Notes: generated from the sequence alone by a model not told the origin. Shown: positions 11,773 through 64,000, counted from the first letter of the stretch. The stretch: DNA of 64,000 nt from Amoebophrya sp. A120 (GCA_905178155.1 CAJINV010000022.1:725044-789043), one strand, 5' to 3'. Made by a program: numbers and translations.

Positions 11773-11779
11773 AGTGGCC

Positions 11780-12260
11780 TCCTTGCAAAACTGTAAAACT
11801 TTGGGGGGTGGGACTTTGTGATGCAAATTCTTGCTGATTCTGGTTCGCCAGAATTTGCGCCACAGGCTTACCACTTCTTCTTGGCTAAAAACTTGCAGCG
11901 CTTCCACGTAGAAATGGGTGCGCTGTAAGATTTTGAAAGATGGGACGTTAGCATCACAGCTCTGCCACTTCTCCTTGGCCTCAAACTTGGCAACGCTCCC
12001 ACGTAGAAATGGGCGTGCTGTAAAATTTTGGACGGTGGCGCTTTATGATGCAAATTCTGAGAGAGATAGACCGTGGCTCGCCAGAATTGCATCACAGATT
12101 TGCCACCTCTTCTTGGCCCCAAAATTGGCGACGCTCCCACGTAGAACTGGGCACGCTGTAAAATTTTGTTGGGAGGGGCTCCCTGATCCAAATGCCGGCT
12201 GATTCTGGTTCGCCAGAATTTGCACCACAGGTTTGCCACTTCGGTCTTCTTGGCCCCAAA
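11780..12260. repeat. Diverged tandem repeat, about 4 units of roughly 100-135 bp
   Basis: Recurrent CCACGTAGAA(A/C)TGGG..CGCTGTAA and CGCCAGAATT..CAC..CTTCTTGGC blocks. Confidence 0.75.
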
Positions 12261-12269
12261 AAGGTCCGT

Positions 12270-13195
12270 TCTTCTGGATGGTGCCTACAAGGCTCGAAAC
12301 CGTTGCCCGGATTTTTTTGGGAATCAGTATGACAGGCATGGACGAAACCCGGGAGGGGCTTGGGTTTTTCTATTGGGGGCAGCCCCGGCGCGTGGGTTTC
12401 CGTGCTTCTGCTTCTGGGTGGTGCCTACAAGGCTGGCAACGGTTGCGCGGATTCTTTGGGGCATCAGCATGACAAGCATGGACGAAATCCGGGAGGGGCT
12501 TGGATATTTCTACCCGGGGCAGCCCCGCCCGATGGGCCTCCGTCCTTCTGGGTGGTGCCTACAAGGCTGGAAACGGTCTCCCGGATGTTTTTGGGAATCA
12601 GCACGATAGGCACGGACGAAATCCGGGAGGGGCTCGGGCTTTTCTACTCGGGGCAGCCCCGCCCGTTGGGCCCCCGTGCTTCTGGGCGGTGCCTACAAGG
12701 CTGGAAACGGTTGCCCGGATTTTTTTGGGAATCAGCATGACAAGCATGGACGAAATCGGGGAGGGGCTTGGATTTTTCTACTCGGGGCAGCCCCGCCCGG
12801 TGGGCTTCCGTGCTTATGGGTGGCGCCTGCAAGCCTGTAAACGGTTGCGCGGATTTTTTTGGGCGCCAGCGTGGCCAGCAGGGATGAAATTCGGGGGGGG
12901 CTTGGGCTTTTTTATTCGGGGCAGCCCCGCCCGGTGGGCTTCCGTGCTTCTGGGTGGAGCCCATAAGGCCGGAAACGGTTGCCAGGATTTTTTTGGGAAT
13001 CAGCATGGCAAGCATGGATAAGATTCGGGGGGGCGCGGGTTGTTCTACTCGGGGCAGCCCCGCCCGGTTGGCTTCCGTGCTTCTGGGTGCGTGGTGCCTA
13101 CAAGGCTGGAAGCGGTTGCCCGGATTTTTTTGGGAATCAGCACGACAGGCATGGGAGAAGTCCGGGAGGGGCGTGGATTTTTCTGCTCGGGGGGT
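12270..13195. repeat. Tandem repeat, about 134 bp x 7
   Basis: GGTGCCTACAAGGCTGGAAACGGTTGCCCGGATTTTTTTGGGAATCAGC..GGGGCAGCCCCGCCCG recurs near 12284, 12425, 12558, 12692, 12826, 12960, 13097. Confidence 0.92.
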
Positions 13196-13209
13196 GCCGC
13201 GCATGCAAA

Positions 13210-13503
13210 AGCGGCGCCGGTTTTGTTGCCAAATCTGGCGCCAGCGGTGCGAGTTTTGGTGCCAGTTCTGGTGCCAGTTTTGGTGCCCAATCTGGCGCCA
13301 GTTTTGGGGCCAGTTCTGGTACCAGCGGGGCCACTTCTGGTGCAAAATCTGGTAGCAGTTCTGGTGCCAGCGGTGCCAGTTTTGGTATCAGATCTGGTAT
13401 TAGTTCTGGTGCCAGTTCTGGTGCCAGTTCTGGTACCAGCGGCACCAAATCTGGTGCCAGTTCTGGTGCCAGCGGTGCCAAATCTGGTACCAGCTCTGGT
13501 ACC
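13210..13503. repeat. Degenerate 9-12-bp minisatellite (CTGGTGCCAGTT)n
   Basis: Directly visible; produces the low-complexity GASSGAS and VPVL ORFs. Confidence 0.9.
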
Positions 13504-19325: not shown

Positions 19326-21481
19326 GTGGCGCAGAAGTTACTATCGAACACCGAACAGACTGTGGCTTCGGAGCTGACACTACGAAGCCACGCCACTGGT
19401 TCGTGGTCGAAGTGCAGTTTTTTTGTTCGCTATAATCGCCTCCAGCAGATAAATCGCCGAAACGGGTATGACAACGTCCAGACAATGGCCGACTTAAACG
19501 CCAGGCCGGTACCCCGCAACATACAGCCCCAAGAGATCCCGCGTAAGCGTAACGATCGTGTTATGCAATGCAAATATGTCCGGGTCTGGAACGGTGCAAC
19601 TTGTCATGCTGCAGTTGAATCTGGCAAAAATCTGTGTTGCGTGCGCGGCTAATTTTACATCCACCTCGCCCCGCGCAAAGTTCCCATTTCTCATGCGGAA
19701 TAGGCATTAACCAGCTTCTGCGCACTCTGTGATGCTTCTGGATGCATTCCAGAGGACCATCTTGGTCTCTGTGTTGCACGAGATGCAAGACAAATTTTGC
19801 GCTCTCCAAACGAACCCAGACATACTTGCACTGGATGCAGGATCATGATCGACAGCAACTACACCAGGCCTACCACGACGACGACGACCAGATCTATCAA
19901 ATGCAAATATGACAGGTCTGGAGGAATGAAAGCTTGTCATGCTAAGGCTCAATCGCGGAAAAATCTGTGTTGCACGAACGCCGGGAGTTGCCCGGTTCTT
20001 GTTGTCATGTGGAATAGACATGTCACAGGCGTCGCTAACTATGTGATGCTTTTCTGTGCATGCCAGGCTGCGGGTGCGTGTGTGGTCCGACGTGAGATGC
20101 ATGAGAAATCTCGCATCCTTCCAGACCCAGACATATTTGCAATGCATAACTTCGAAGGCCGAGGCCGGGCAATATCAAAGTGAAAAATCCCCCCCTCCCC
20201 ATTTTCGCAAGGAAGCTTCTGATGCTGGATTTGCGTACACGAATAAGCTCTGCCTTGGTTCCACAATCGGGCGACATCCTCTGAACTTTTCTTCTTGCAG
20301 GACGCGACAATCAATTATTTGTGGTCACAAATCAGCATCACAAATTTCCCTTTCGAGTATGGGCAGGGGGCCCCTTCTCACAGAATAGCCGCGAGAACAG
20401 CAACTAGCAGTCGCAGAACAGCAACGTCGAGCGCGAAAGCAATCGTGTCCCATGCGCATCCGGCTGATGATCGTATCAAATGCAAATATGTCTGGGCCTG
20501 CAAGAAAGCAATACTTGTCATGCAGAATTTCCATGCCTCCCGCGGTCTGGAATGCAGCACCTAGCATGGCAGGTTCTGCGAGGTCTCTAAACCCTATCAT
20601 GCCTATCCTGCACTTTCTCTCATTATGAGATGGTCTCAACGATTATGCTTTTAAAAATTCAAAAAAATCTTTATTAAGAAAGCAAATAGCAACAATTAGC
20701 CGCCGAAGCCGCCGCTGTTTTCGCGCCGTTTGTGACGTCGTTTGCCGCCGTCTTCACAAGCCGTCGTATGAGGTTGTTAAATAAGTAGTTCTAAATGAGA
20801 TCCCAATTTGAACTAGCTAGTTTAGGTAATAGACATTCTCATTGCCATGAGCAGCTTGAACCCACTCAGCTAAGGTGTTTGGCCGGCCAGATCGACACGG
20901 CTTCCAAGGTTGACGGGCCCGAACTTCGTCTGGGGCCCCGTCCGGGGCTCCGAGCAACATTCCGGTGGAGCATCCAAGGTAGTCGGCAGCTTCGGATCGC
21001 AGGAGAGGAGAGAGCTGGCGGCACCTCAATGCAAATCTTCAAATAGCTACTTTCTAAGATGCATATTAGCTAGTTCAAATTGGGATCTCAACATTTAGAA
21101 CTACTTATTTATCACATTCATAATCTGCCAAGTGGCGACGCGCGGAAGCTGTGGACAACGGAGCACCAAAACGGAGTCGATTCAGGATGGATATGTGCCT
21201 ATTTGCTGTCTTAAAAAAGATTTTTTTGAATTATTGAAATCATAATCGTTGAGACCATCTCATACTCATGTTGGTTGAAAAAAGCACAAGAACCTTCGGT
21301 GATTGCGCAAGACACATTTTTTGTGATCCACAAGACGCATGATCACAGGTTCCATCCTTCCGGACCCAGACATATTTGCAATGTATACGTCGACGAACTG
21401 CAGCCAAGTGCAGAAGAGCGGAGGATCGAAGCAGAACTGCAGAAACTGTACGACGAGCGTCGCCAGGCAGTATCTTACTGA
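19326..21481 (+). CDS. Hypothetical protein fragment with 4 introners, start unresolved
   Basis: Removal gives RKRNDR.HDRQQLHQAYHDDDDQI|EGRGRA|REQQLAVAEQQRRARKQ..MI|DELQPSAEERRIEAELQKLYDERRQAVSY*. Confidence 0.45.
19562..19837. mobile_element. Introner family A
   Basis: TIR pair; DR diverged. Confidence 0.78.
19895..20148. mobile_element. Introner family A
   Basis: TIR pair; DR AGATC/ACTTC. Confidence 0.85.
20173..20387. mobile_element. Introner family B
   Basis: TATCAAAGTGAAAAATCCCCCCTCCCCAT ... ATGGGCAGGGGGCCCCTTCTCACAGAATA. Confidence 0.8.
20474..21387. mobile_element. Introner family A carrying a nested element
   Basis: Family A TIRs 914 bp apart; DR GATCG/CGTCG. Confidence 0.85.
20624..21264. 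mobile_element. Long-TIR fold-back element (family E), nested
   Basis: TATGAGATGGTCTCAACGATTATG ... CATAATCGTTGAGACCATCTCATA; exact DR CTCAT; second internal inverted arm pair at about 20775-20822 and 21066-21113. Confidence 0.92.
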
Positions 21482-29869: not shown

Positions 29870-32800
29870 AGCGTATCCGTCAACTGTCCTCTCGAAGAAA
29901 ATATCAAATGTAAAAATGTCTGGGTCTGGAAGAATACAAGATTTGCGATGCAGGTTTTCCATGATCCTTGAGGTCTGGAATGCGAAACCCAGCATGACAG
30001 ATTCATGGAGGTCTCTATCATGCCTTTCCTGCATGAGAAACTCCCTCTCAACTTGGTCAAAAGCAGACAGCTTTTGGCACCCACGCAACACAGATTTTTG
30101 CATCATTCAGACCAGCCATGCCCCGGCTCACGCCGGGTGGAGCGGCTGTTGTGGTGGGGCAGGACGATTTGCGGATCGGGCCACAGTGCCAAAGCTTTGC
30201 GCCCGGCGTGATAGGTCGAAGGAAGTACTGGCGCCGGTTTGCGCCATTTCAACCCGCTAGGCCTCCTGCGCGCTTCCCGCGCATTGTTCAGGCGCTATGC
30301 GCAGGCAGCAGTTGCAGCGAAGCTTGGGGGCGAAGCGAAGCCGCCTCGGCGTAGGTGCCTGTCGAGGCAGAACGGGGGCCGCGATGCCCTTTTGTGATCA
30401 CACGCGAGAGGGTGGCCAGAGAGGGTGGCGCGACAGGGTGGCGCGAGAGGGTGCGTGAGAGGTTGGCGCGAGAGGGCGCGAGCCTACGTGACGAAAAAGG
30501 CCCAAAAAATCGACCCTGTGCCGGGCGGATTCGGGTTTTCTTAACCGCCTCGCAGACCCTCTTTTTCACCTCTGCCGAGGGGCGCGCCTAATAGTCCGGC
30601 TATACTCGCCGGTAGAGGTCTACAGAGGTGGCCGAGAGGTGGCCCAGAGGGTGCGCGAGAGGTTCGCCCTTATTCGCGCAACCTCTCGGCACCTCTGTCC
30701 CCCTCTCGCTTACCCTCTCCCGACCCTCTCGGCCACCTCCGTCCCCCTTAGGCGCGGTTGTAGGGCGACCGGTTCGGCTGGCTATACTCGCGCCACCTCT
30801 CGGCCACCCTCCCGAATGACCTCCCGCGCCACCTCTCCACCTCTGCGGACCTCTTTTTGATCTCTTTTCACCTCTTTTTGACCTCTCGGCCACCTCTCTT
30901 CTATCCTCTGTAGACCTCTTTTTTCGCATGAATATAATAGATAGTATTTTGACATGACAAGTTCTAATCTTCCAGACCCAGACATTTTTACATTCGATAG
31001 AAAAACGATACGGACAAATTTCGCGAGCGGAATACGACGCGGCGAAAAAACACGACGGAAACGGTGCGGCGAGTCTCGACGAGTGGTTCGTGTGCGATCA
31101 TCTGTGCCCTTTATCGTAGAAAAAAGAACACCACTCCAGTACCCAGTGACAGGACCATGATTTGCCATGCTATAGTTAGGGATCACAAGAAAAAAGAGAA
31201 CATGTCGTCTGCCCAGCAGCAGACATTCTACGCTTTCCATGGCAACAAAATGTCTTGGCATTGCCGAGTTTTTTGACGACACACTTGTAGCGAAACGAAA
31301 GGCAGTTGCAGGCCTTTTCTTCTGTGATTGGGTCTACTTTTTTCTGCGATACCGTGGAAGCGACTCGAAGGCGCACGTGTGGCGGAAGTACACCGGCTCG
31401 TCTCCACCAGTTGACGGACCTTATCCTGCTGAAAAGTACAATCACACCCAAAGAAAAAAGTTTCTGTTGCCAGTATTTTCAGTTCGCTCAAAAGCAACGC
31501 TGTATTTCGGTTGACAGATACTTAGGAGAAAACAAACTCCGAAAAAGTTTGTCTTGCACGATATGCAATGCACAGGTTTAGTAGTGGTGAACATAACTGC
31601 AACCAAAGCTAATCCTTGTATTTGTGTATGAGCGGTGTGCAGCTTTTCGCTGTGATGAACCAGCTTGGCTTTACAACTACATCTGGGACAACGACGGCTA
31701 CCTTGTCCAGCCACAGAACATGCCTGGAGCAGCACCGCAGACCCTTATCAGAAGGAAAAATCCCGCCTCCCCATATCGAAAAGAAAATTTGTGATGCTGC
31801 TTTGTGACCACGAATCAGCTTTGTCTTGCGTACAAGGCGATCGGCGGCCATGTGGCGCATTATGCAGCGAGTCTGTCATGCGGTTTCGCCTATGTCAGAC
31901 TTGTTTCGCATGCTCAGCTGCTAGCCGGATGTGTACCCGGGGGGGCTTAGAATATGCTGACAAGCTCTTGCCGCAATACAGAGCTCATTGGTGTACACAA
32001 ATCCAGCATCAACGCAAATTGTCTTCCAAATATGGGGTGGGGGCTTTTTTCACTTGGATAACGCTGCAGCAAATTTTTCGGCATCCGGAAAACCCCGAGA
32101 CCGAGAGCCTGTTCTTCCTGGGAATAAATAACAAGAGGTTCGAGAAAGTTGCCCCAATGTCGACGGAACAGAAATACTATATCGACGCGATGGCGCGGGA
32201 TTATCCGGCGGCTGATTTCTACTGGATTATGCATTGCAATATGTCTGGGTCTGGGAACTTGCAATGCTGGGATGTGAATACGATTGGTGAGCTCTTTGTA
32301 ATGCACACGCACAGCCAAGTATGACGAGAAATATAATTGGGCTTTCCGCACGACAAACTGCGTTTTTGCATGACAGGCGCCAGGATCTCTTCTTGGACAC
32401 GCATCACTAACTCTGCAGTCAGGGCAGACAAGCATGACAAACGTTGCCGGTTTCCAGACCCAGACACATGTGCCCTGGATATGTCTGGTAGTGGGTCATG
32501 GAGGGTTTGGGGACTCGTTTCTGGTGGCTTTCGCCCGGAATTATCAAACTGAAAAGTACAGCACCGCCAGTTTTCATCTTTGCCGCAGTTTGTATACACC
32601 ACTAGAGCAGAAGTCCGCTTCGATGCGGCATCCATCGTCACAAATTTTTGCGCCAGTTTTTTTCCCCATCTGCAGTTGCAGAGCTCATTTTGCGTTTCGC
32701 GACAGCAAAAACGCATTTTCTGCATGCCCACCGCGGAATGCGGCCCAGGTGTTTACTTTTCTGCTTGATATCGATGCGCCGACGACGGAGTGCGCGACCG

Positions 32801-33430
32801 CGATCGCACCGATAAAAGGCGGGTCTGTTGAGTATAAGAACTTTGATGTTTTGTTCTTATTCTACCCATGTCAAGCACTGAAAAAGCAAAATTACGTGTT
32901 CGCACTTCATTGCAGGTTTTGTTGCCGCGATCTATTTTTTTTATTTCTCTGATCATGAATACATCACTACAGGTACCAGCGAGAATTTGAAGACCTGGCC
33001 CGCAAAGGATACCGTACGTGCAAAATGTCTTCGCTTATGCAAGACAAATGTGTCTGGGTCTAGAAGACTGCAACGTGTCATGCTGATGCTATGTTGCATG
33101 CACGGCCGCAAGCGCTATTCACTCTCTGCCGCGCAAAGGGCGAGTTTTTCACGTGGAATAGGTATCAAAGAGCTGTTGCACAAATCGAGAATGTGATGCA
33201 GCTTCCGGTTGCATTTCGTCTAGATCATTTTACATTTGTGTGTTGCACCAGGTGCATGACAAATCTAAGCAACCTCCCAAATCCAGACACATTTGCAGGG
33301 CATATCGGAAGATCTGGATATGGTGAAAAACCTTATCGATAACAAGGTTTGGTTTCCGATCCCGGACGCCAAGTATCAACGTGGAAGGTTCTCCCAGTCT
33401 TACAATTTCGAAGTGCGTGCCTTGCCATGA
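29870..33430 (+). CDS. Multi-exon hypothetical protein (7 introners plus one GT-AG intron), start unresolved
   Basis: Continuous frame after removals: NCPLEE|KRYGQISRAEYDAAKKH..DHLC|PGSDSKAHVWRKY..DGP|AWLYNYIWDNDGYLVQP..QT|LQQIFRHPEN..DFYW|MVVGHGGFGDSFLVAFARN|APTTEC..SV|EYQREFEDLARKGYRTCKMSS|QDLDMVKNLIDNKVWFPIPDAKYQ..VRALP*. Confidence 0.7.
29902..30999. mobile_element. Introner family A carrying an 830-bp insertion
   Basis: Family A TIRs; exact DR GAAAA. Confidence 0.9.
30112..30941 (-). mobile_element. Putative non-autonomous Helitron-like element nested in an introner
   Basis: Minus strand: A|TCTATTATATTC ... hairpin CCCGGC-GTGA-GCCGGG, GCATGG, CTGG|T; no TSD. Confidence 0.7.
31112..31351. 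mobile_element. Introner, minor family
   Basis: TATCGTAGAAAAAAG ... CTTTTTTCTGCGATA; DR CCCTT/CCGTG. Confidence 0.82.
31746..32060. mobile_element. Introner family B
   Basis: Closely similar to 63094-63408; DR ACCCT/ACGCT. Confidence 0.9.
32228..32481. mobile_element. Introner family A
   Basis: TIR pair; DR TGGAT/TGTCT. Confidence 0.82.
33036..33304. mobile_element. Introner family A
   Basis: TIR pair; DR TCGCT/TCGGA. Confidence 0.82.
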
Positions 33431-46191: not shown

Positions 46192-46248
46192 CCTACTTTA
46201 CTCATACCAGTCTTCCTCGTCGGCATGGCGAAGTATCAACCGGAGCAT

Positions 46249-46519
46249 TATCAAATGCAAACGTGTCTGAGTCTAAAGAGGTGGAACTTGTGATGCTGCT
46301 TTTGAATTCCAAACAAATCTGTATTGCTTGAGCAGCCAGCGATACTAGAGGTCTGATTTTTTGTTACGTGGACAGGGCATTCCTCATGCGAAATAGGCAT
46401 CAAGAAGCGCCTAGAAAAAATGTGATGCTTGAGAAAGTGTACCACACATCACGGGTCATGTAAAATCTGCATGACAGGTTGCACCAGGGTTCTAGACCCA
46501 GACATATTTCCAGTGCATA
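46249..46519. mobile_element. Introner family A
   Basis: TIR pair; exact DR AGCAT. Confidence 0.9.
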
Positions 46520-46627
46520 AGCATATCCAGTCGACAACGTTTCCGCCCGCGTCGCACACCGAAAATGCTCAGCCTTCTTCCCTCTTAAATGGGCAGAAGA
46601 CGCTGACACCTTCGGTGTGCAGGTCGG

Positions 46628-49600
46628 GTGGCATCGTTTTTCATTTTGAGATATCACGTACCGCGTAGAGCACTCTCACGCGAGGAAGACGGACAACAAC
46701 GGTCCCTGTTTCGGGGTACGCGAGCCGGATCTTCGACTCCCAGAACGGGTCCCGGTTTACGGGCACGCGAGACGAGTAATTCCTCCGCCGGGAGCACGGG
46801 GTCGAGGAAGAGACCCGACGTCAACGAGCACCAGTACCAAAACCGAATAAATGCAGCGTCGTCGGTGCGGGTTCGCAATTTACAGGATCGTCTGCTGAAA
46901 GAGGCCACGGCGACTGCTGCCTCTCCACTGCTGCTCGCAGAGTTTTCGAGAAAAAGATGCGCTCTGGTGTCGCGAGTCCGAGACGAATACACGCAGCTAC
47001 GGAACTACATGCAGCAGATCCGGCACGGCGGTCAGTCGGGAGCTAAGGCTGCGGCATCCCTGAGGGATGTGACCGACTTGGAGAACCAGTGGGATGAAAA
47101 CCTGCAGCGGCTCCTCGATGTATGCTGCAGAAGAGCATGTCGATAGGAAAGCAGCTGCTCCCAAATTCGGCTTTGTCATGATTGTCATTGTGCAGCGCAG
47201 CCACGTCCTCGATAAATGGCGAAGTAGACCTCAGATATTTTGTCATGCCGCTACACGGCCTCGGCTTTTACACCCCCAGATCTTCCGTCGTCCCCTTCAA
47301 GACATGTTGTTGACATTTCATAGCACTGTATCGACGTGGAATCTGCTGGCGTACCGACCGCAGTGGCGGGAGCTCCTACTGCAGGTAAAGGTGATTGCGA
47401 AAGCAAATATGTTGCTTTAGATCTTCATATCAACTGCAAATTATGTTTCTGGGTCTAGTAGAAGATGGCAGTTTGTCATGCACATTTTCCATGCTTCATG
47501 ATGAATGACTGTGATGCATGCCCTAGCATCACAGATTTTTGAGCGCTCTCGCTTAGTTGTCGAGGCGCTCCCCGCATGACAAGTGCCTTCTTCCCGTAGC
47601 CAAGTTTAACTCCTCTTGCTCCTCATGCAATACAAATTTTTTTTAGCATCCAAATGCAGCATCACTGTGATGCCATCACAACCAGCATTCTTCTAGCCCC
47701 AGATACATTTGCGTGTGATACTTCTTATCGACAGAAGCAATTTCTGGTAAAAGTCTTTACTGAATGCGAACTGGACGCACTAATCTTTTCTTCGTGAAGA
47801 TCCCCGGCAAGATAACCCCGGATTTCTCTTGTTTACCGTGGAGAACAAAAATCCCTTTGCAGCTCCGATAAGTGCAATGAAAATTATACAGACCACTCAA
47901 GACCGAGCGGTGTGTATTTGAAAACTAGTTTTGAACGTTGTTTCTCATAGATCAAAATAAAGAAAATGAACAGGATGATAAGGACAAGGCAAGAAATCGA
48001 TCGAGCAAGAAAAGGAACGAAATACCAAGGAAAAGCAAGCAAATTCTTGCCACGATCGACAGAAAAAGGAAAAGGAAAAGAGAAGAGAAGAAAAGCAAAG
48101 AAATTAGGTCTGATTTACGCTGAGTTCGCATTACAAACTGCCTTTTCACTACTTTCAAGGAGCTGAGTCAAGGCTACGGGCACGATTAGAAATATGAAAA
48201 GACGCGAAATAGCATTAGAAACTGAGACAACTAGATTGGGGATATTGAATCTGTAATGCGTATTTGTGGAATTTGGAGGAGTTTTAGATGGTGTTCAAGT
48301 AAGACTTCGGTGTGTACGCGTCTGAAAAATTAACCTCTCCATTTCGAAACTAGATCCTACAGCGGCGATGAACGCGTCTTGACCATAGAGTCGCTCCAGG
48401 CCTTACAGGACCACTATCAAATGCAAAAATGTCTGGGTCTGGAACATTCTAAACTTGTGATGCTGTCTCTGGATTCTAAAAAAAATTGTATTGCATGATC
48501 AGCAAGAGGACTCCATGTTGTGCTACGCGGAGAGGGCATTTCTCATGCGGTAGAGGTATCACAAGGCCCTCTAAAAATCTGTGATGCTACGGCATGCATC
48601 ACAGACATGATGGCTCATGGAAAATATGCATGACAAATCTCGAAATCTTCCAGACCCAGACATTTTTGCATTTGATAACCACGTGCAGTCGACCATGCGC
48701 CAAGTTAACGCGGACATGGTGTTCAAAGGTGAGTGCTACATCATCGCCTTCGGTTTACATTTTTTGTAGGTCGTGATGATGTAATGATCGAAGCGTATGT
48801 GTGACGAGAAGAATATGATTTATCAATATGATTGGATTTGTTTTATTGGTGGATTGAAATGATATAGAAAACCACACTTATTTTCCTCTCAGGCGACGCG
48901 GTCCTGTATTTGTTATGCAAGGCAAATTGCATGAGCGGCAAGAGAATTTTATTTTTTGCTACGTGGGGTGGGCATTTCTCATGCTGGATAAGCATAAAGA
49001 CGCCGTCAGAAAAGCTGTGATGCTGCGGCGTCTTATATCGCAGACATCATCGGTCATGNNNNNNNNNNNNNNNNNNNNNNNNNNNNNNNNNNNNNNNNNN
49101 NNNNNNNNNNNNNNNNNNNNNNNNNNNNNNNNNNNNNNNNNNNNNNNNNNNNNNNNNNNNNNNNNNNNNNNNNNNNNNNNNNNNNNNNNNNNNNNNNNNN
49201 NNNNNNNNNNNNNNNNNNNNNNNNNNNNNNNNNNNNNNNNNNNNNNNNNNNNNNNNNNNNNNNNNNNNNNNNNNNNNNNNNNNNNNNNNNNNNNNNNNNN
49301 NNNNNNNNNNNNNNNNNNNNNNNNNNNNNNNNNNNNNNNNNNNNNNNNNNNNNNNNNNNNNNNNNNNNNNNNNNNNNNNNNNNNNNNNNNNNNNNNNNNN
49401 NNNNNNNNNNNNNNNNNNNNNNNNNNNNNNNNNNNNNNNNNNNNNNNNNNNNNNNNNNNNNNNNNNNNNNNNNNNNNNNNNNNNNNNNNNNNNNNNNNNN
49501 NNNNNNNNNNNNNNNNNNNNNNNNNNNNNNNNNNNNNNNNNNNNNNNNNNNNNNNNNNNNNNNNNNNNNNNNNNNNNNNNNNNNNNNNNNNNNNNNNNNN

Positions 49601-52600
49601 NNNNNNNNNNNNNNNNNNNNNNNNNNNNNNNNNNNNNNNNNNNNNNNNNNNNNNNNNNNNNNNNNNNNNNNNNNNNNNNNNNNNNNNNNNNNNNNNNNNN
49701 NNNNNNNNNNNNNNNNNNNNNNNNNNNNNNNNNNNNNNNNNNNNNNNNNNNNNNNNNNNNNNNNNNNNNNNNNNNNNNNNNNNNNNNNNNNNNNNNNNNN
49801 NNNNNNNNCCTGAGGGATGTGACCGACTTGGAGAACCAGTGGGATGAAAACCTGCAGCGGCTCCTCGATGTATGCTGCAGAAGAGCATGTCGATAGGAAA
49901 GCAGCTGCTCCCAAATTCGGCTTTGTCATGATTGTCATTGTGCAGCGCAGCCACGTCCTCGATAAATGGCGAAGTAGACCTCAGATATTTTGTCATGCCG
50001 CTACACGGCCTCGGCTTTTACACCCCCAGATCTTCCGTCGTCCCCTTCAAGACATGTTGTTGACATTTCATAGCACTGTATCGACGTGGAATCTGCTGGC
50101 GTACCGACCGCAGTGGCGGGAGCTCCTACTGCAGGTAAAGGTGATTGCGAAAGCAAATATGTTGCTTTAGATCTTCATATCAACTGCAAATTATGTTTCT
50201 GGGTCTAGTAGAAGATGGCAGTTTGTCATGCACATTTTCCATGCTTCATGATGAATGACTGTGATGCATGCCCTAGCATCACAGATTTTTGAGCGCTCTC
50301 GCTTAGTTGTCGAGGCGCTCCCCGCATGACAAGTGCCTTCTTCCCGTAGCCAAGTTTAACTCCTCTTGCTCCTCATGCAATACAAATTTTTTTTAGCATC
50401 CAAATGCAGCATCACTGTGATGCCATCACAACCAGCATTCTTCTAGCCCCAGATACATTTGCGTGTGATACTTCTTATCGACAGAAGCAATTTCTGGTAA
50501 AAGTCTTTACTGAATGCGAACTGGACGCACTAATCTTTTCTTCGTGAAGATCCCCGGCAAGATAACCCCGGATTTCTCTTGTTTACCGTGGAGAACAAAA
50601 ATCCCTTTGCAGCTCCGATAAGTGCAATGAAAATTATACAGACCACTCAAGACCGAGCGGTGTGTATTTGAAAACTAGTTTTGAACGTTGTTTCTCATAG
50701 ATCAAAATAAAGAAAATGAACAGGATGATAAGGACAAGGCAAGAAATCGATCGAGCAAGAAAAGGAACGAAATACCAAGGAAAAGCAAGCAAATTCTTGC
50801 CACGATCGACAGAAAAAGGAAAAGGAAAAGAGAAGAGAAGAAAAGCAAAGAAATTAGGTCTGATTTACGCTGAGTTCGCATTACAAACTGCCTTTTCACT
50901 ACTTTCAAGGAGCTGAGTCAAGGCTACGGGCACGATTAGAAATATGAAAAGACGCGAAATAGCATTAGAAACTGAGACAACTAGATTGGGGATATTGAAT
51001 CTGTAATGCGTATTTGTGGAATTTGGAGGAGTTTTAGATGGTGTTCAAGTAAGACTTCGGTGTGTACGCGTCTGAAAAATTAACCTCTCCATTTCGAAAC
51101 TAGATCCTACAGCGGCGATGAACGCGTCTTGACCATAGAGTCGCTCCAGGCCTTACAGGACCACTATCAAATGCAAAAATGTCTGGGTCTGGAACATTCT
51201 AAACTTGTGATGCTGTCTCTGGATTCTAAAAAAAATTGTATTGCATGATCAGCAAGAGGACTCCATGTTGTGCTACGCGGAGAGGGCATTTCTCATGCGG
51301 TAGAGGTATCACAAGGCCCTCTAAAAATCTGTGATGCTACGGCATGCATCACAGACATGATGGCTCATGGAAAATATGCATGACAAATCTCGAAATCTTC
51401 CAGACCCAGACATTTTTGCATTTGATAACCACGTGCAGTCGACCATGCGCCAAGTTAACGCGGACATGGTGTTCAAAGGTGAGTGCTACATCATCGCCTT
51501 CGGTTTACATTTTTTGTAGGTCGTGATGATGTAATGATCGAAGCGTATGTGTGACGAGAAGAATATGATTTATCAATATGATTGGATTTGTTTTATTGGT
51601 GGATTGAAATGATATAGAAAACCACACTTATTTTCCTCTCAGGCGACGCGGTCCTGTATTTGTTATGCAAGGCAAATTGCATGAGCGGCAAGAGAATTTT
51701 ATTTTTTGCTACGTGGGGTGGGCATTTCTCATGCTGGATAAGCATAAAGACGCCGTCAGAAAAGCTGTGATGCTGCGGCGTCTTATATCGCAGACATCAT
51801 CGGTCATGCTTGATGTGGATGCATGACAAAACACCCAGACCCAGACATAATTGCAACGCATGAACTTTGATGCTGACACATCATTTGCTGTGGATGCAAT
51901 TCCTTGCACGACGAGCTTGCACTCGTAAAGGGCGAGCTGCACTACCTCGGGGAGGCCAAGAAGATATGGGAAGAGCTCTCGTATCAAAAGGAAAAGTCCC
52001 CTCTCCCCATGTCAAAACGGAAATCTGTTATGCGGGATTTGTGTAAACAAATCAAATCTGTCATGCAGTAGAGGACTGCACGCACTTCGCAAGCCTAGGC
52101 ACGGGCCGCTTGGTGTAGGCGTCTAGCATGGTAAACGTCTGCAATGTAGGCCTCACAGCGTCACAAATCACCTGTGTATTAACGCGGCGGATTCTCTGCA
52201 TTTGCCTTCCTGCAAGACAGACAGGATTTGTGGTGACAAATCTGCAAAGCAAATTCTCAGAAGGATGCGCTTTCAACATGGGGAGGGGGGATTTTTCGTT
52301 GCGATATCTTGCAGCGGAAGGTCAGACGGCTATCGTGCGCAAAGTCGTCCCTATCAACAGGAGGTCGCACATTGAACAGTGATTCTGCTGTCAAAACCGC
52401 TTCGGTGCTACAACCGTTGATAAGGAAGGTGAATTTTACACAGGATAACGCAATAGTCGCGATTTAGACAAGGAGGTGGAGGACACCGATCCCGCGACGA
52501 CGGCTGAGGCCGCCATATCAAGACGGATCAAGGAACTGGAAGTCGAAAGAGACGTACTCGCGGTATCACCTGCTGGAGGGCTGTCATGGTCACAAGTTTT

Positions 52601-53393: not shown

Positions 53394-53698
53394 ATAAATG
53401 TGGCCTTTTGTTGCCTTGCAGCATGTCTGTCTCCTAGCATGACAAAAACATGAATCCTGTATTTCTGACACAGTACATTTGAGACGCAGAAAAGTTGCAG
53501 TGGCACGGCGCTTCTGCTCTCGAATAACCAAAAGGACTACATTACCACCGACTCGCTGGCACACGGTAAGCCTCTATCACTCTGAATGCGTATGATGTTA
53601 GTACTCAGTAACAACAGAATGTGTTCATTTATACTTTTCTGATAAGGTACTCATGCTATTCTTGTGGTACTTTTTTTAAATTGTTCACACTGCAGCGG

Positions 53699-53951: not shown

Positions 53952-54272
53952 AGAACGAATGAAGCTCCTGCGGTTATGACGCCGAAACGCAACCGCCCAC
54001 TATCCTAATTAAGTACGTGCGCGCCAGCGCGGAATTCTTTTTGTAAATACGACAGGGCGGCCCGTAATTTGGGCTGCTACAATGTAAACGTAGCAATGGG
54101 ATGAGATGATGCTGCACTTGCATTGAAGAAATTTAAATGCGGCAGAAAGTTTGATTTGCATTGCAACTATTGCGCTGGAGGGCCATATGGATCACATTTT
54201 TGTTGCAGCGCTCCCTTTTGAAGTTTTCAGGGCGTTCAGCATAGAGTGGATGAGGTTTTCGGCGTGATACGT

Positions 54273-54431
54273 TATGCTGTGCAAAAGTATCGTACCCGTA
54301 CTGGTTGCAAAACTGCATGACAGGTCTCGCTTTTTTAGGTAACATAGCACGATTTTGTCTAGTTTTGGAAAAAAGGAGGCATGCGATCGGGACTGTGTAC
54401 GAGTACGTGTACGACGCTTTTGCAGTGCATA
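54273..54431. mobile_element. Short introner, family K
   Basis: TATGCTGTGCAAAAGTATCGTA ... TACGACGCTTTTGCAGTGCATA; related to 61472-61620. Confidence 0.8.
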
Positions 54432-54513
54432 GACATGGACAGGATGCGACTCCTTCAAGGGGAGTTGAATAGCGCCGACACTAGGTACCGAGACCTAGAA
54501 ACCGCGCACGCCG

Positions 54514-55608: not shown

Positions 55609-56070
55609 TTCGACGAGATCTGTTCATCTTCCTCCCCGAGTACTTTATGTTTTCTTTATAGTTTGTTACGATGTAGTGAAGTTCGATGCCACTCTACCTG
55701 TAGTTTGTGCAACATTTTTTCCTTAACAAAACAGTTTTCCAAAATCTTTTCCTTTAACAAAACAGTTTTTCACTCTATATGCAGGAAGATACCCAGTTCC
55801 ACGCCGCCCTCAACCTCGAAGGATTCAGGTTGTATGTTCAGCAGGATGATACGTACACAAATGAAGAAATGAATATTGATTCTGATACGTCCGAGTTCCC
55901 CAATTGTTTGCTTATAGTATTTTTAACCAACGCGGTAGGCAGAAGCATACCCCGTCTCTTGCTTCTAGGATACAGTCAATCTGAATTCTGCTGCATGAGG
56001 GTCGTGGAAGTTTCTCTGATTCATAACGGCCACCGCCCGGGCCAAGTCCCACGGTGGACACCGTCAGCGA

Positions 56071-56332: not shown

Positions 56333-58469
56333 AGCGAAGCGGACAAAGAACAAGAAGCGGACGGTCCAGTTCCGATGGGTCCGATGCGAATCAACGTATG
56401 AAAGTGAATACCCTTTTTCCCCATCCCGTCTAGTCGTTCGTGTTTGCATCCTAGCAAGCTAATCTTCTGCTCCCAGTAGAAGTAGTGTAAAATTTGCATT
56501 GCTGAAAAAGAGAAAGGGTGGTTTTTTCATCGTCATTATTTGCAGCGCCACCGCCAGAACCCATGAACATGCAAGGCGTGCCTGCTGCGTCACCAATCCG
56601 GAACAAGGAACCGCCCAAGAACTTATCGATGCGAAACCCTTCCTGCTCAACCATCCCCCGAGAGGTGTTCGTGTATGTGTTTTTTCCGTGCAGCCAGCTA
56701 ATCATTTTGCATGCCTCTAGATTTTAGCTTTACCTAAGCAGAGCCAGAAGGAGGCCCAAAATATGTTCTGTTTCTAATCTATCGCGTGCTTCACCATAAT
56801 TTCTCCCTTGTGGCACCTGGAAGGTTTTTGCATCGGTATTCTGTGACCATCAAAACGAAGTTATCAAAATGAAAATCCTCCGTATTCGAACGATGATTTT
56901 GTTCAGAATGCATCTGAGAAAGAGATGATGACCAACAGCCCAATTGTCCTGCATGTTCTGCTCTCTTGAAGTGGAATGCGGTGGTTTTGATTTTGATATG
57001 CCAGCCACGAAGAACACCAACGCTGCAAATATCAAGTGAAAATAGGTCTGGGTCTGGACGGAGACGAGAGTGAGATTTCTCATGCATCTTTTGCGTGACC
57101 AAGAACGACAGGTATACGGGCCAGAGTATCACAGCTGTTGTAAAGCATCACGATCTCCACTCACATTCCGGTCATATACGCATGACAAATTTGAACATCT
57201 TCTATGGCCGAAAAAAAAATACGCAACTTTTATTTTTGCGGCCCTGGCATGACAGATTTTTTTGCGAATTACATCGCGCATGACAAATTTCCAGTTTCGT
57301 GCCCCCCCAGGCGCAGGCGTATTTGCAGTTCATAGCAGTAAGGAGTTAATAACCAAATTCTGTAGTTCTGCAAAACGAAAATATTTTTTTTTGTTCGACA
57401 AATTTACAACCTACATTGCAAGATAAGAAGAAATAGCATCACGAGATTTAGACTTTTACAAGGTGTGATTGAAAATAGGTAGATTTTGCCGACAGAACTC
57501 GAGCTCTACAGCTTGACCATCGTTAGCTTATCGAAATTGCATGATGAACAATTAAAGCATATGAACAGAAATCAAAGTAGAAAAAGAAAATCGCCGATGC
57601 AAGCAATATCAATACTGCATCTCCATCAAAAATTTTGCCTCAAGTAGAAGTAGACACGACGAAGACTGCGCTGAGTATAAATTGTTCAAGTAGAATTTGG
57701 CTGTGACAGCTCGGAATGTTCTTTGCGCGGAGCAACAATAATGTCCCAGTATTTTGGACTACTCGCCTGTGCCTGCGTGTTCAAGCTCTTGACAGAGAAA
57801 CTCTTCGCTGTCCTGGCTCTTTTGCGATCGCAGCGTTTGTGCATTGAATGGATCCTCGAAGCACCTTTTTTTTTTTCTGCTATTAGTATTATCGATGTAT
57901 CTATGTTCTGGTGCGCAAAATAACACTATACTCTCAATTCGCTTTTTCACAACCAGTGACAATGTAGCCTTCGGTCAAATGCGTTTAGGCGTCCATAATG
58001 AGAAAATGCGTCTTCCTCGAGTTCTTTGTTGGTCTCTCACTCTGTAGTATGAGTGCACTGAAGGACCACCTGCCAGCAACCTATTGAGGCCTCACAGGAA
58101 AACGATTTTTGTTGCCGGAGCTCTTGTGCGAAAGTCGCAAGAAGTGGCACTGCCGTCTCCTTCTTCGGCCTGATTGGGACTCGAGCTGTGGCAGGCGGGA
58201 AACAAAGGATTCAAGATAATGGGCGCGTACTAGTCCTACTCCTAGCACTTCTTCGACGCGGTTGGAACTACATCCGGGCAGCTGCGCTTGATTCATTCTG
58301 CGCTGGTGGAGCGCCGCTCAAAACAACGAGGAAACGCGGCAGAGCAGAAGCGGCACTGGCTACAGGTACCATGCGGAATTAGAGGAGCCCGGCCTGTCCA
58401 GCACCCTCGGCAGCGTGATCCAGAGTTTTCCTGATTTGGGCGGGAACCTCCACTTTGTGCCACTGCCGG

Positions 58470-60585: not shown

Positions 60586-63500
60586 ATGGCGGATGACCTT
60601 GCAGACCTGCTGGACACCTTTGAAGACGACGGGGAGGAGGAAGACTACGTGCCACCCGTATCAGAGCGGAATTTTGGGTCATCGCGAGGTGGATTTGTCA
60701 TGCGTTTTTCAATATATGAAATGACCAGATTGTGATTGCGCATTTTTGCCGAAGGGGCATGACAAAGTCCATTCTGTGGCTCAGAATTCTCTGTTCCATA
60801 ACCGCCGGACGAACCCCCGGATGAAGTTCCACCACTTGCAGCTGGACGAACCAGTATCTTCGAAGGAGACAGTGCACTTGTTCCCGGACAGAAAGAACAA
60901 GCTTCTATGCCAGAAGTAGATCTGCATCACAGATCGAACCAACTCGGCCCTCCGAGTCAACATGTGGCCGCTCTGGCACCTGCGGATCCGGATCCAGCCG
61001 CCCACTACAAGCCACCACAGTTACAACCTGATCATACCGCTGTTCTTTCACCAGGGCAGAAGGACGAAATTCCCCTGCCACCTCCCCCTGGCCAGCCCTC
61101 GCCGCCAGATGAGCGACCTGATGAGGAAGAAATTCTACATGGGGACTCAACGCAAGCAGCTGTGGGAAGTGGTGGATCATCCGCTGGAAGAACCACGGCA
61201 GATGAACAAACGGCTCCAGCACCACAAGTCCCGAACTTCTCGGACAGCACACTGCGTACAACGGAAACACCTACAACTGGAGGAATTTTTCCCATTGCGG
61301 CAACCGAAGGCGCGCAGAGCGCGATATCCGCTGCGGCTGTGACAGCAGGACAGGTCGCGACTACGGCGGTTGCGAAAAGCGATGGAGTGCAGGAGCCCGT
61401 GGCGGGAACAACAACGGGCAGCAGTACTACTACTGCAGCTGCTGCGACAAGCATTGCTGCGGGTCCCGCAGTATGAATTGCAAAAGTATCGTATTCGTAT
61501 AAATGCATGACAAATTTTCTCAGCATGAGATGAAATGAAATTTGTAATGCTGATTTACCTTAAGAAAAAGATTTGTATATGCATGATTGCAATACGCGCA
61601 CGATCCTTTTGCACAGGATACGCAGCGATGGGTGCCAGTTCCTCCTCGTCGAGCTCCAGCTCGACGGGTAATGACCCAGCAGGGAGCAATTCTACGACGG
61701 CTTCGTCCGCCACGAATGGCACTATGAACAACAAAAAATCCTACGCCTGGGAGACCCGGAATCAGTTCAACAAATTGAAGAACCGCGACAACCTGTCGTC
61801 CCAACTCTGCCGGATCCGGGAAAAGCAGGCGCAGAAACGACAGGAGGAAGCGCAGAATCGGGTGCGGCAGTTTGATATCAAGTGCGGAAGTGTCTGGGTC
61901 TGGAAGATTCCGGGACGTGTGATGCATATTTTCTATGATCCGTCACGCATGTAATGCATGATCTAGCATCACAGATTTTTAGAGGCCTTTCTGATGCCTA
62001 TTCCGCATGAGACACGCCCTCTCCGCGTAACACAAACTGGACTCGTGATGCTGGTCACGCAATACAGATTTTTTTGGAATCCAAAGACAGCATGACAGGT
62101 TGCAATCTTCCAGACCCAGACATTTTTGCAATCCATATTCGAGAAAAATTCGGGGTTTCACCTAACAGACAGGTGTTTGTCGCAAGACAAGTTTGACGCC
62201 TGCATGCGGAACAAGGTCAAGGTATACCAAGGAGTAGGTGTTGAATATTTTGCGGGTTTTTTGTGATGAAATTCATCTTGTTCACGCATGGCAAACTGGT
62301 AAAAGCGTACTACAGGATGTGACTCTGCATGACATCAAATTTTTGCCAAACAATTTTCCCTACTTTATCCAGGTCGAACTCCGCGACATAAAACGTCTCG
62401 TGACAAGCGGCACAGCCCAAAACGCAGAGTTTAAAGACAAGGACGTTGTGCTCATTGCGATCGGCATCGGGTATTTGCCATCTGTCACCTGTGGCAATAA
62501 CATGGTCTGTTCCGAGTGGAAAATTTGCGATCTGCCAACACCCGCACACCCGCAGGCGTTCGTGTGCACGCTGAGGTTGCACGACCAGGCGTATATCGGT
62601 ATTATACAGTTCTGCATGACAAATTGCTGCGTTTGAGGTACTAACTTGGGGTTCTGCATGACAAACTATGTTGCGTCTCCTGCGTCCGAAACTGCTTGCG
62701 GCGACGGTGCAAAGGTTTTTGATGTGGTGCAGTCGGGTATGCATGACAAACTATGTTGCCCTTCCAGTTTCCGCATGACAAAAAGATCTTTCTAATGCAA
62801 TTCTCGCAACTCAAACTCCAGGTTGGACGTCTAACCGCGAAGCTTCCGCGGAGCTGAAGAAAGGATATGCAATGCAAAAGGAAGCAGGGCGGTACTACGT
62901 GGAAATTGCATGACAAGATTTCTGAGCACGAAAATCCAATTTGTGATGCTGAGTAGCGTACAAGGTTATGGATCTGTCATGCCAAATTGCAATTTATCAC
63001 GAGAAGTGCGATCCTATCTGCAGTGGATAAGCGATCCGTGTTCGCGATTTTGAACCCAGTCGTCACCTGCCAGCAATCCTCGCACCGCTACTTTACTCTG
63101 AGGAAAAATCCCCCTTCTCTCTATTGAAAAGGAAATTTGTGATGCTGATTTGTGACCACCAATCAGCTTTGTCTTGCGTAAAAGGCAAACGGCACCCATG
63201 TGGCGCATGGAGCAGCGAGTCTGTCATGCGTTTTCGCCTATGTCAGACTTGTTTTTCATGCTCAGCTGCTAGCCGGACGATGCGTACCCAAATGGGGTTA
63301 GAATATGCCGACAAGCTCCTGCTGCAATACAAAGCTCATTCGTGTACACAAATCCAGCATCACAAATTGTCTTTTGAATATAGGGTGGGAGCTTTTTTCA
63401 CTTTGATATACTTCGTGCGGGTTCGACACGCGGCGCAAGTGGTTAAACTGGGGGAATGCGAGGACGTGGGCTACTGTAGTGCGAAGGTATCAAATGCAAA

Positions 63501-64000
63501 AATGTCTGGGTCTGGAAGGTTGGAACTTGTGATGCTAACTTTGGACTCTGACAAAATTTGCATTGCGTAACCAGCAAGAGGAGTGCAGTTTGTGCTACAC
63601 GGACACGGCATTTGTCATGCGGAGTAGGCACCATCAGGAACCCCTTTAAAAATCTGTGATGCTAGGTCGTGCATTGCAGACATCCTAGGTCATGCAAAAT
63701 ATCATGACAAACCCGGCAACATTCCAGACCCAGGCATTTTTGCATTTGATAGAAGAGCGGAAAGAACAAAAATGAAACCTGTGGCCAGCCGATCAACACG
63801 CGGAATTGCCCGAGTGGGATGTGCTTTTTCCACCAGGAGCTATCAAATATAAAAATGTCTGGGTCTGGAAGATTCTGACACTTGTCATGCACGTTTTGCA
63901 TGAGCCATGATGTCTGTGATGCGTACCCTAGCAATACAGATTTTCTGAGGGCTTCTTGATGCCTATTCCGCATGACAAATGCCTTCTCAGCGTAGCAAAA
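60586..64000 (+). CDS. MCM10: Minichromosome maintenance protein 10 (DNA replication factor), 3' partial
   Basis: Predicted exons 60586-60657, 60805-61470, 61625-61874, 62142-62221, 62373-62598, 62822-62864, 63034-63092, 63413-63486, 63756-63839 give one open frame: MADDLADLLDTF.., FEKNSGFHLTDRCLSQ.., DVVLIAIG..SEWKICDL..LRLHDQAYIGW..KKGSVFAILNP, VVKLGECEDVGYCSAK..ETCGQPINTRNCPSGMCFFH. These match the MCM10 EKFSG motif, OB-fold and CCCH zinc finger (recognised by eye). Confidence 0.88.
60659..60800. mobile_element. Short introner in MCM10
   Basis: TATCAGAGCGGAATT ... AATTCTCTGTTCCATA; DR ACCCG/ACCGC; in-frame removal. Confidence 0.78.
61472..61620. mobile_element. Short introner family K in MCM10
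   Basis: Exact DR CGCAG; removal joins GPA|AMGASSS. Confidence 0.9.
61876..62137. mobile_element. Introner family A in MCM10
   Basis: TIR pair; DR TTTGA/TTCGA. Confidence 0.92.
62222..62372 (+). other. GT-AG intron of MCM10
   Basis: AAG|GTATAC..TTATCCAG|GTC; in frame. Confidence 0.75.
62599..62821 (+). other. GT-AG intron of MCM10 containing family C-derived sequence
   Basis: G|GTATTA..CTCCAG|GT; in frame (AYIGW). Confidence 0.78.
62866..63029. mobile_element. Short introner in MCM10
   Basis: TATGCAATGCA ... TGCAGTGGATA; DR AAGGA/AGCGA. Confidence 0.85.
63094..63408. mobile_element. Introner family B in MCM10
   Basis: Exact DR TACTT. Confidence 0.92.
63488..63751. mobile_element. Introner family A within the MCM10 zinc finger
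   Basis: TIR pair; DR GAAGG/GAAGA. Confidence 0.93.
63841..64000. mobile_element. Introner family A, cut by the window edge
   Basis: Left TIR TATCAAATATAAAAATGTCTGGGTCTGGAAG. Confidence 0.85.

Follow-up and report, generated by a model that had tools for sequence, protein, structure and literature searches.

Two plain GT-AG introns in the MCM10 gene of Amoebophrya sp. A120 appear, on balance, to have different histories. The intron at 62599–62821 reads as a former family A introner whose ends have been replaced by ordinary splice signals, and the intron at 62222–62372 reads as an old one at a position that is shared with an AT5-type relative. Both are located in a 64,000-nt stretch of DNA (GCA_905178155.1 CAJINV010000022.1:725044-789043; the window) that is packed with elements of 110–330 nt starting with TAT and ending with ATA. 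These elements match the introner elements of Amoebophrya sp. A120 described in the available text of PMC7789003. A preliminary description of the window had treated both introns, and two others at 2666–2863 and 32832–32972, as decayed introners. Its observations are confirmed in part and its interpretation is supported in part: one of the four introns is probably a decayed introner, one is probably an old intron, and two are without evidence for such an origin.

Splice joints were taken from transcript-like contig sets of four runs, which represent one sample and whose RNA status is a software guess. The joints cover 44–64 kb of the window, and introns in positions 1–44000 are predictions only. 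The register count uses 18 joints among those listed; three of 15 in one listing were dropped (an N gap, a joint between repeats and a micro-exon). Raw reads of RNA runs X9 and X10 map poorly (20 and 2 reads, mainly onto element ends). The gene finder, with MCM10 exons among its seeds, recovered 19 of 23 transcript-derived introns and one or two of the five canonical ones. Donor counts from ab initio canonical introns are rough, e.g., the predicted intron 4673–4861 sits within an old element. A larger element sample was obtained by a scan for the main terminus, which gave 166 metagenome loci (487 kb merged) with the same families, nearly all from one assembly. These loci represent a related or the same species and, having been picked by exact terminus, are biased to young elements. 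Positions 47061–49059 and 49810–51810 are exact copies of about 2 kb around an N run (49059–49808), the second of which is skipped by a transcript contig. The second copy is probably an assembly duplication, and the duplicate was masked in counts. A Pfam search on 40 exons gave no match above cut-off.

The gene that carries the two introns is an MCM10 orthologue (Table 1). The window protein is 58% identical over 228 columns to P0001 from Amoebophrya AT5.2. The A25 orthologue, P0002, has PF22379 (MCM10_OB) and PF09329, and the last exon in the window matches zf-primase (E 3e-4, below the curated cut-off). Contigs of all four runs of the one sample skip 62222–62372, 62599–62821 and six more introns. 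With the two plain GT-AG introns spliced out, the frame is open and is gapless at either site against two orthologues. The joints slide by 3–4 nt, so that GT-AG is the best reading of these introns and not a measured cut. Both start with GTAT as originally described, but they are not the only GT-AG introns of the gene, as there is a third at 63487–63755. The reported absence of terminal inverted repeats is borne out: 9 of 24 terminal bases are complementary in 62222–62372 and 8 of 24 in 62599–62821, with fold z values of -0.57 and +1.11, compared with 23 of 24 and -8.41 in the intact element at 63487–63755. The latter scores 191 bits to family A; it has the inverted and direct repeats and the TAT-N7-AAA terminus, belongs to a repeated family and is removed from the mRNA in the introner register described below. 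It was likely canonical from birth.

Table 1. Features of the window, with positions counted from its first nucleotide
Feature	Positions	Strand	Evidence or remark
MCM10 orthologue, coding exons	60586–63839	+	joints; continues beyond the element at 63840 and past the window
Decayed non-canonical introner, GT..CG	60658–60804	+	joint, no sliding room
Non-canonical introner, GT..CA, 150-nt family	61471–61624	+	joint
Non-canonical family A introner, AT..CG	61875–62141	+	joint
GT-AG intron, phase 0, K356/V357	62222–62372	+	joint in 4/4 runs; P0003 enters intron-like sequence there
GT-AG intron, phase 1 (I431/G)	62599–62821	+	joint in 4/4 runs; family A homology; P0006 unbroken across site
Family A-derived core, profile positions 69–213 of an element of about 252–257 nt	62602–62782	+	four GCATGACA motifs
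Module between identical 20-nt repeats (62655–62674, 62740–62759)	62655–62759	+	holds the 31-nt segment
Branch-point-like CTAAT (presumed)	62792–62796	+	30 nt upstream of the 3' end
Non-canonical introner, AT..CG	62865–63033	+	joint
Non-canonical introner, TT..CT, T-TAC start	63093–63412	+	joint
Intact family A introner, GT-AG ends	63487–63755	+	repeat GAAGG/GAAGA; joint in 4/4 runs
Family C element, repeat CCGGC/GCGGC	3020–3303	+	extra 19-nt piece between 15-nt repeats (3217–3231, 3251–3265), absent from other copies
Predicted GT-AG intron, no element trace	2666–2863	+	3' part homologous to the intron ending at 3859, duplicated exon block
Predicted GT-AG intron, no element trace	32832–32972	+	alternative in-frame donor at 32823, preferred by the gene finder
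Control: strongly decayed introner	47120–47326	+	still cut GT..AC exactly in register (transcript joint)
Control: canonical intron (GTAAAG) that holds a nested, decayed family A element about 30 nt past the donor	47385–48353	+	transcript joint, family A profile

The intron at 62865–63033 is also seen in a retained form, in a 226-nt contig (62837–63062) present in all four runs beside the spliced form; no retained-intron contig for the two canonical introns was found among the matches listed. In metagenome contigs, 382 stretches matched the pattern for a genomic MCM10 orthologue and none was confirmed. A further homologue search for exon fragments found only P0005 and P0006. P0005, P0008 and P0009 read through both intron sites and were left out as possible transcripts.

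The introners have a fixed splice register. Their ends read TAT[CG]...AAA: among 374 confident copies, drawn from the window and the metagenome loci, 96% of the 748 ends carry C or G as the fourth base, and the target duplication that flanks these copies is exactly 5 bp. Thirteen of the 18 joints fit N-TAT...ATA-NNNN (one of them as N-TAC), four are plain GT-AG and one is neither. The joints of 47120–47326 and 60658–60804 have no room to slide, which fixes the register. The register that the preliminary description had deduced therefore holds for 13 of the 14 joints other than plain GT-AG. An element cut in this way leaves the mRNA restored, and the first base and the last two bases of the intron come from the target. 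The termini outlast the duplication: 47 elements with decayed repeats keep a mean terminal identity of 16.3 of 24, with C or G at +5 in 42 of the 47. Nested elements are common in canonical introns here (47385–48353, 790–1259 and, in metagenome locus L030, 1107–1426). In A25, non-canonical introns mostly start with TT and the elements with TTA, according to the available text and Table S4 of PMC7789003; these ends and the N-TAT ends of the window would both preserve the U at +2 and the A at +3 of an ordinary donor.

Other arrangements of elements and exons were also seen. The compound introns 46246–46656 and 53973–54436, in which one element was inserted at the end of an older one, are cut outside the usual register. 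Micro-exons lie between adjacent introns at 53696–53697, 52311–52329, 55763–55778 and 56843–56860; the first, of 2 nt, is implied between the canonical intron 53566–53695 and an introner; the left repeat of this introner and the acceptor AG overlap. An element in metagenome locus L020 (229–455) is in a (T/C)AGGT target and has GT-AG ends if cut one base before the usual register. The family A elements at 20473–21391 and 29901–31003 are interrupted by inserts of 640 nt and 800 nt. The insert at 20624–21264 is bounded by perfect termini and a 5-bp repeat of its own; 30403–30944 recurs at 90% in locus L027. The inserts may be longer relatives that lead to an autonomous element. Positions 10050–13400 consist of tandem arrays with units of 72/75 nt and 134 nt.

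The interior of intron 62599–62821 is related to family A. About 180 of its 223 nt align to the family A introner, with approximately 65% identity to the best member compared with 77–96% between members. The core scores 30.5 bits against the family A subfamily profile, and shuffles with the motifs kept give 9.6 ± 5.7, none of 200 being as high. The score against the family profile is 22.3 bits (0 of 100 shuffles), and the pairwise score is 103 vs 63.8 ± 5.4 (maximum 79 in 25 shuffles). The GCATGACA motifs are at 62614, 62656, 62741 and 62773, and the last is 41 nt from the 3' end, where 45–46 nt is expected for an intact element in register. The first 68 nt or so of the element are gone, and the last 39 nt contain CAG and the branch-point-like CTAAT. 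No terminus is present in register: there is a TAT, but none of the three A (no AAA), a T at +5 and no ATA. The direct repeat is 2/5 only (ATCGG/CCAGG), and the exon side reads ATCG and not NNAG. There is a weak likeness to the terminus 6 nt before the 3' end, which 70 of 2000 shuffles equal.

A comparison with P0006, which is 71% identical to the window protein as against 55–57% for AT5.2 and A25, bears on the age of this intron. P0006 begins with intron-like sequence and then reads unbroken, as one ORF represented by its protein only, over the 62599 site and two introner sites. It could come from partly spliced RNA or from a lineage that has lost the 62599 intron. The proposed derivation of 62599–62821 from an introner is probable on the grounds of its family A interior and its absence from one relative, but not of the family C segment that had been cited for it. 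We lean toward birth as an introner that has since decayed. That an element was nested in an older intron, or that modules were transferred into one, is a substantial possibility as well. If the intron was born as an introner, either the wobble base was altered later or the acceptor was gained by substitution.

The family C segment had been noted as shared between 62721 and the element at 3231, and the match itself is real. Positions 62720–62750 and 3230–3260 are identical at 29 of 31 nt (E 4e-8). A 17-mer of the shared segment is present exactly at two places, and with up to 3 mismatches there are three matches vs 0.19 expected. The segment is, however, not part of the family C core. In a family C BLAST search, 9 of 12 among the matches listed end just before it, and the second copy in the window is without it. 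A contig of run X6 carries 62681–62748 with different flanks (98% or more likeness), and the 31-nt piece is also found in an unrelated setting in metagenome locus L056 (1492–1539). The segment is a mobile module that moves between copies of the GCATGACA motif in unrelated elements, with 15–20-nt repeats flanking it. A search with the module pattern gave no matches in viral contigs. A reading of the 66-nt module of 62599–62821 as a target-specific retroposon with a long duplication was dropped, as the whole core aligned to family A. The motif GCATGACA / TGTCATGC is common to nine element families with different termini, and its density per kb is 9–10 in elements, compared with 0.3 in the remaining intergenic DNA and 0.08 in exons. 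It is possibly the binding site of one transposase or host factor.

Intron 62222–62372 is likely an old spliceosomal intron, to judge by protein comparison with an AT5-type relative. P0003 is encoded by an unbroken ORF on a contig of 2308 nt. It is near-identical to AT5.2 as far as the K/V junction, after which come 16 unrelated residues and a stop; these residues are not accounted for by a frameshift. The sole reading that starts with GT after K/V places an intron with the donor GTNCAY at this same phase-0 site, and the ORF is uninterrupted across the introner sites upstream. In AT5, 99.98% of introns are canonical according to the available text of PMC7789003. The preliminary description had named an ancient, shared position as evidence against its reading, and the phase-0 K/V site shared with P0003 is such a position, as represented by one sequence and its ORF protein only. 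With P0003 leaving frame at the same site, the position is probably not lineage-specific.

The flanks of this intron, CAAGG/CCAGG, form a 4/5 repeat with an NNAGG exon context. AG/G is the normal splice context. The residual direct repeat that had been reported is present but does not exceed chance, as 6 of 77 predicted canonical introns with GTA donors also have a 4/5 repeat, and it mostly follows from the usual AG/G context. The score against the family profile is 0.9 bits (47 of 100 shuffles as high), the pairwise score is 58 vs 49.9 ± 4.9, and the subfamily profile gives 6.5 bits (1 of 200 shuffles). With a 22-nt family A terminus profile the 3' end outscores all 51 predicted canonical introns and is equalled in 1 of 500 shuffles, but one base off register; among the four profile lengths used (18, 22, 26 and 30) the result is clear at 22 only and weaker otherwise. 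One element motif is present at 62327, 38 nt from the intron end; there is an A at +5 and no AAA. These weak element-like signals are compatible with chance, with an old insertion nested in the intron or with gain in parallel.

The introns at 2666–2863 and 32832–32972, both predicted only, do start with GTAT, but neither has an element motif or a profile match and their proposed origin as decayed introners is unsupported. The homology between the 3' part of 2666–2863 and the intron ending at 3859 (0 of 1000 shuffles) shows that 2666–2863 predates the duplication, and that elements entered each copy separately later. The duplicated exon block (2864–3552 and 3860–4871) has an old element that is shared (3319–3552, 4321–4871). 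A family C element at 3019 and family A elements at 3908 and 4357 are each in one block copy only, which provides empty sites and an insertion order.

Donor sequences were compared for traces of the element TAT. In 49 filtered predicted canonical introns the donors are GTAT in 19 (GTATAG in 8), GTAC in 11 and GTAA in 7. Transcript-supported GT-AG introns without inverted repeats in the 44–64 kb region have GTAT in two of five; the others are GTAAA, GTGAG and GTAAG, the GTAAG being read from micro-exon letters. The GTAT introns that had been highlighted were therefore selected out of a mixed set. C or G at +5 is found in 2 of 19 GTAT canonical introns vs 42 of 47 old elements (p 1.5e-9), and all four introns of the preliminary description have A or T there. 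When 24 GTAT[AT] introns were compared with 53 other GTA introns, they were not enriched in ATA, AAA or terminal pairing, nor in repeat bases at the two positions that lie outside AG/G. The element motif is found before filtering in 9 of the 24 vs 4 of the 53; after filtering it is in 7 of 19 GTAT introns vs 2 of 30 others (p=0.019), or vs 2 of 22 with GTA/GTGA donors (p=0.057). This favours some element contribution, in noisy ab initio sets. GTAT and an AG/G repeat are also present in the apparently old 62222–62372, so that a GTAT start is not a reliable fossil mark. According to the available text of PMC7789003, snRNP27 was not detected in A25 or A120, and in yeasts loss of SNRNP27K accompanies U at +4 in the available text of PMC10581693. 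By analogy, GTAT may be common because the host spliceosome prefers U at +4, and not as retained element TAT.

The fate of the free bases was followed in 306 intact elements, defined by termini within predicted coding sequence in the window and the metagenome loci. G is the first intron base in 100 of them and AG the last two bases in 26, and the exon-side copies give 99 and 28. There are 12 gains vs 11 losses of G, and 6 gains vs 8 losses of AG. Ten of the 306 (about 3%) have GT-AG ends where 8.5 are expected, and eight of these have a perfect NNAGG repeat; elements with GT-AG keep their termini (19.9 vs 19.7 of 24 identity). The balance of gains and losses, the near-expected count and the perfect NNAGG repeats indicate that GT-AG ends arise mainly at insertion. 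Among the 53 elements whose repeats have decayed most, G has 13 gains vs 3 losses (p=0.02, uncorrected and one of several splits) and AG has no signal; G occupies the free base in 36% of old vs 31% of young elements. The statement that free bases become G and AG thus retains a weak signal for G and none in direction for AG. A slow neutral leak would give no directional signal, so the balance does not speak against a slow route. Possible intermediates are two or three (L017, L020, L023) among 476 predicted GT-AG introns. Table S4 of PMC7789003, in its available form, has NT-AG ends among the commonest, but 8 of the 9 top A120 types read NT..AN on both strands and the table is for this reason not taken as AG enrichment.

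Possible, though doubtful, is a history in which both introns are old and canonical, and 62599–62821 took a family A insertion near its donor, after which deletions removed the left end and most of the original intron, or modules were copied between GCATGACA motifs. The three nested elements named above, whose termini inside an intron are free to decay, are consistent with this, as are the mobility of interior modules (62681–62748 with other flanks, and the 31-nt piece in one family C copy and in L056), the single motif of 62222–62372 at its old position and the lack of a terminus in register in 62599–62821. It is opposed by the absence of the 62599 intron from P0006 and by the extent of the element sequence, which begins at nt 4 of the intron and stops 39 nt short of its end, with the last motif near its in-register place; two of the three nested examples retain 200–600 nt of other sequence. 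As for 62222–62372, a family A element could have landed in CAAGG where the AT5 lineage independently has an intron. The NNAGG context, the 4/5 repeat, the terminus-like 3' score and the motif near the end would agree with such a parallel gain. It is nevertheless very improbable in that two events at one base are needed, and the family profile and pairwise scores, the A at +5 and the lack of AAA also argue against it.

The general route of the preliminary description, in which GTAT canonical introns including both of MCM10 are decayed introners whose free bases became G and AG, is improbable. It would account for GTAT as the commonest predicted donor and for GTAC, a rare alternative element end, as the second. 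The motif enrichment in GTAT introns above the intergenic density, the G gains in the oldest elements, the few candidate intermediates and the weak 3' remnant in 62222–62372 are also in its favour. Yet 62222–62372 has its position in common with an AT5-type lineage in which the donor has to be GTNCAY and not GTAT, AG shows no drift, the G share of old and young elements is similar, the +5 base differs, GTAT introns are without an excess of repeat, ATA or AAA, and 2666–2863 and 32832–32972 show nothing. In addition, the available text of PMC7789003 gives A25 more strain-specific canonical positions (32.6% vs 24.8%), yet 1% of its canonical introns have an inverted repeat plus a direct repeat and its elements start with TTA. 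The preferred reading is still that of two histories, one for each intron.

The elements of the window agree with the A120 introners of PMC7789003 in having inverted repeats of TAT, seven loose bases and AAA, direct repeats of 3–5 nt and a length of about 240–260 nt. In the available text of that paper, 15% of A120 canonical introns have an inverted repeat plus a direct repeat, and 98.6% of introns at conserved positions are canonical. Splice sites there are variable relative to the hairpin, whereas here the register is fixed at N-TAT...ATA-NNNN with a strict 5-bp duplication, and canonical introns that have lost their repeats do not appear in that text. The class 12 introner-like elements of Polarella glacialis (Roy et al., bioRxiv 10.1101/2020.10.14.339549, available text) share the 5-nt target duplication. 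Their geometry is that of 63487–63755, with the acceptor from NNAGG and the donor from the last G of the duplication plus the first base of the element. An NNAGG or NAGGH target is required there, whereas here it accounts for a 3% minority and elements in the other targets are spliced with non-canonical ends. Introner decay into ordinary introns has already been proposed, in the available texts, for fungi (Collemare et al. 2013, PMC3609843) and as type conversion in euglenids (Milanowski et al. 2016, PMC4770533). The fungal introner-like elements lose structure and length until they are indistinguishable from regular introns, but they are canonical from the start and there is no switch of splicing mode. 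The intermediate introns of euglenids are hairpin-bounded and transposon-like beside conventional ones, with one GC-AG example for the proposed conversion; the 5' GT is ascribed there to purine selection and not to kinship, and the terminal motifs and lineage differ. Fritillaria borealis (PMC11282704, available text) likewise has hairpin-bounded, transposon-like non-canonical introns beside conventional ones, and its GT-AG introns are mostly at conserved positions, but again with other terminal motifs and in another lineage. A fixed register or terminus-less, element-derived canonical introns were not found for Amoebophrya in the openly available literature searched.

Dependence on the non-canonical route would keep element termini conserved even once the duplication has decayed. 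In a copy with GT and AG, through birth or chance substitution, together with a usable branch point, this constraint would be lifted, and deletion and substitution could then erase the termini, as may have happened in 62599–62821. A broader and rather unlikely version is a neutral ratchet, in which the splicing mode recognises solely the paired termini and a U-A-U at +2 to +4, and leaves G at +1 and AG free. GT-AG copies would escape, lose their termini and acquire a donor of the GTATAG type and a branch point; short, motif-bearing GTAT introns (7 of 19 predicted) would then be fossils, with 62599–62821 one that was caught late.

These results bear on whether introns born from transposons end as ordinary ones, and on what share of ordinary introns has that origin. 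They provide a splice register that is fixed, a null rate of about 3% for elements that are GT-AG from birth and one good candidate, 62599–62821, together with the warning that GTAT starts and AG/G repeats also mark an apparently old intron. In genomes of this type both splicing modes are present in one gene and relatives have been sequenced, which makes the question testable on existing data.
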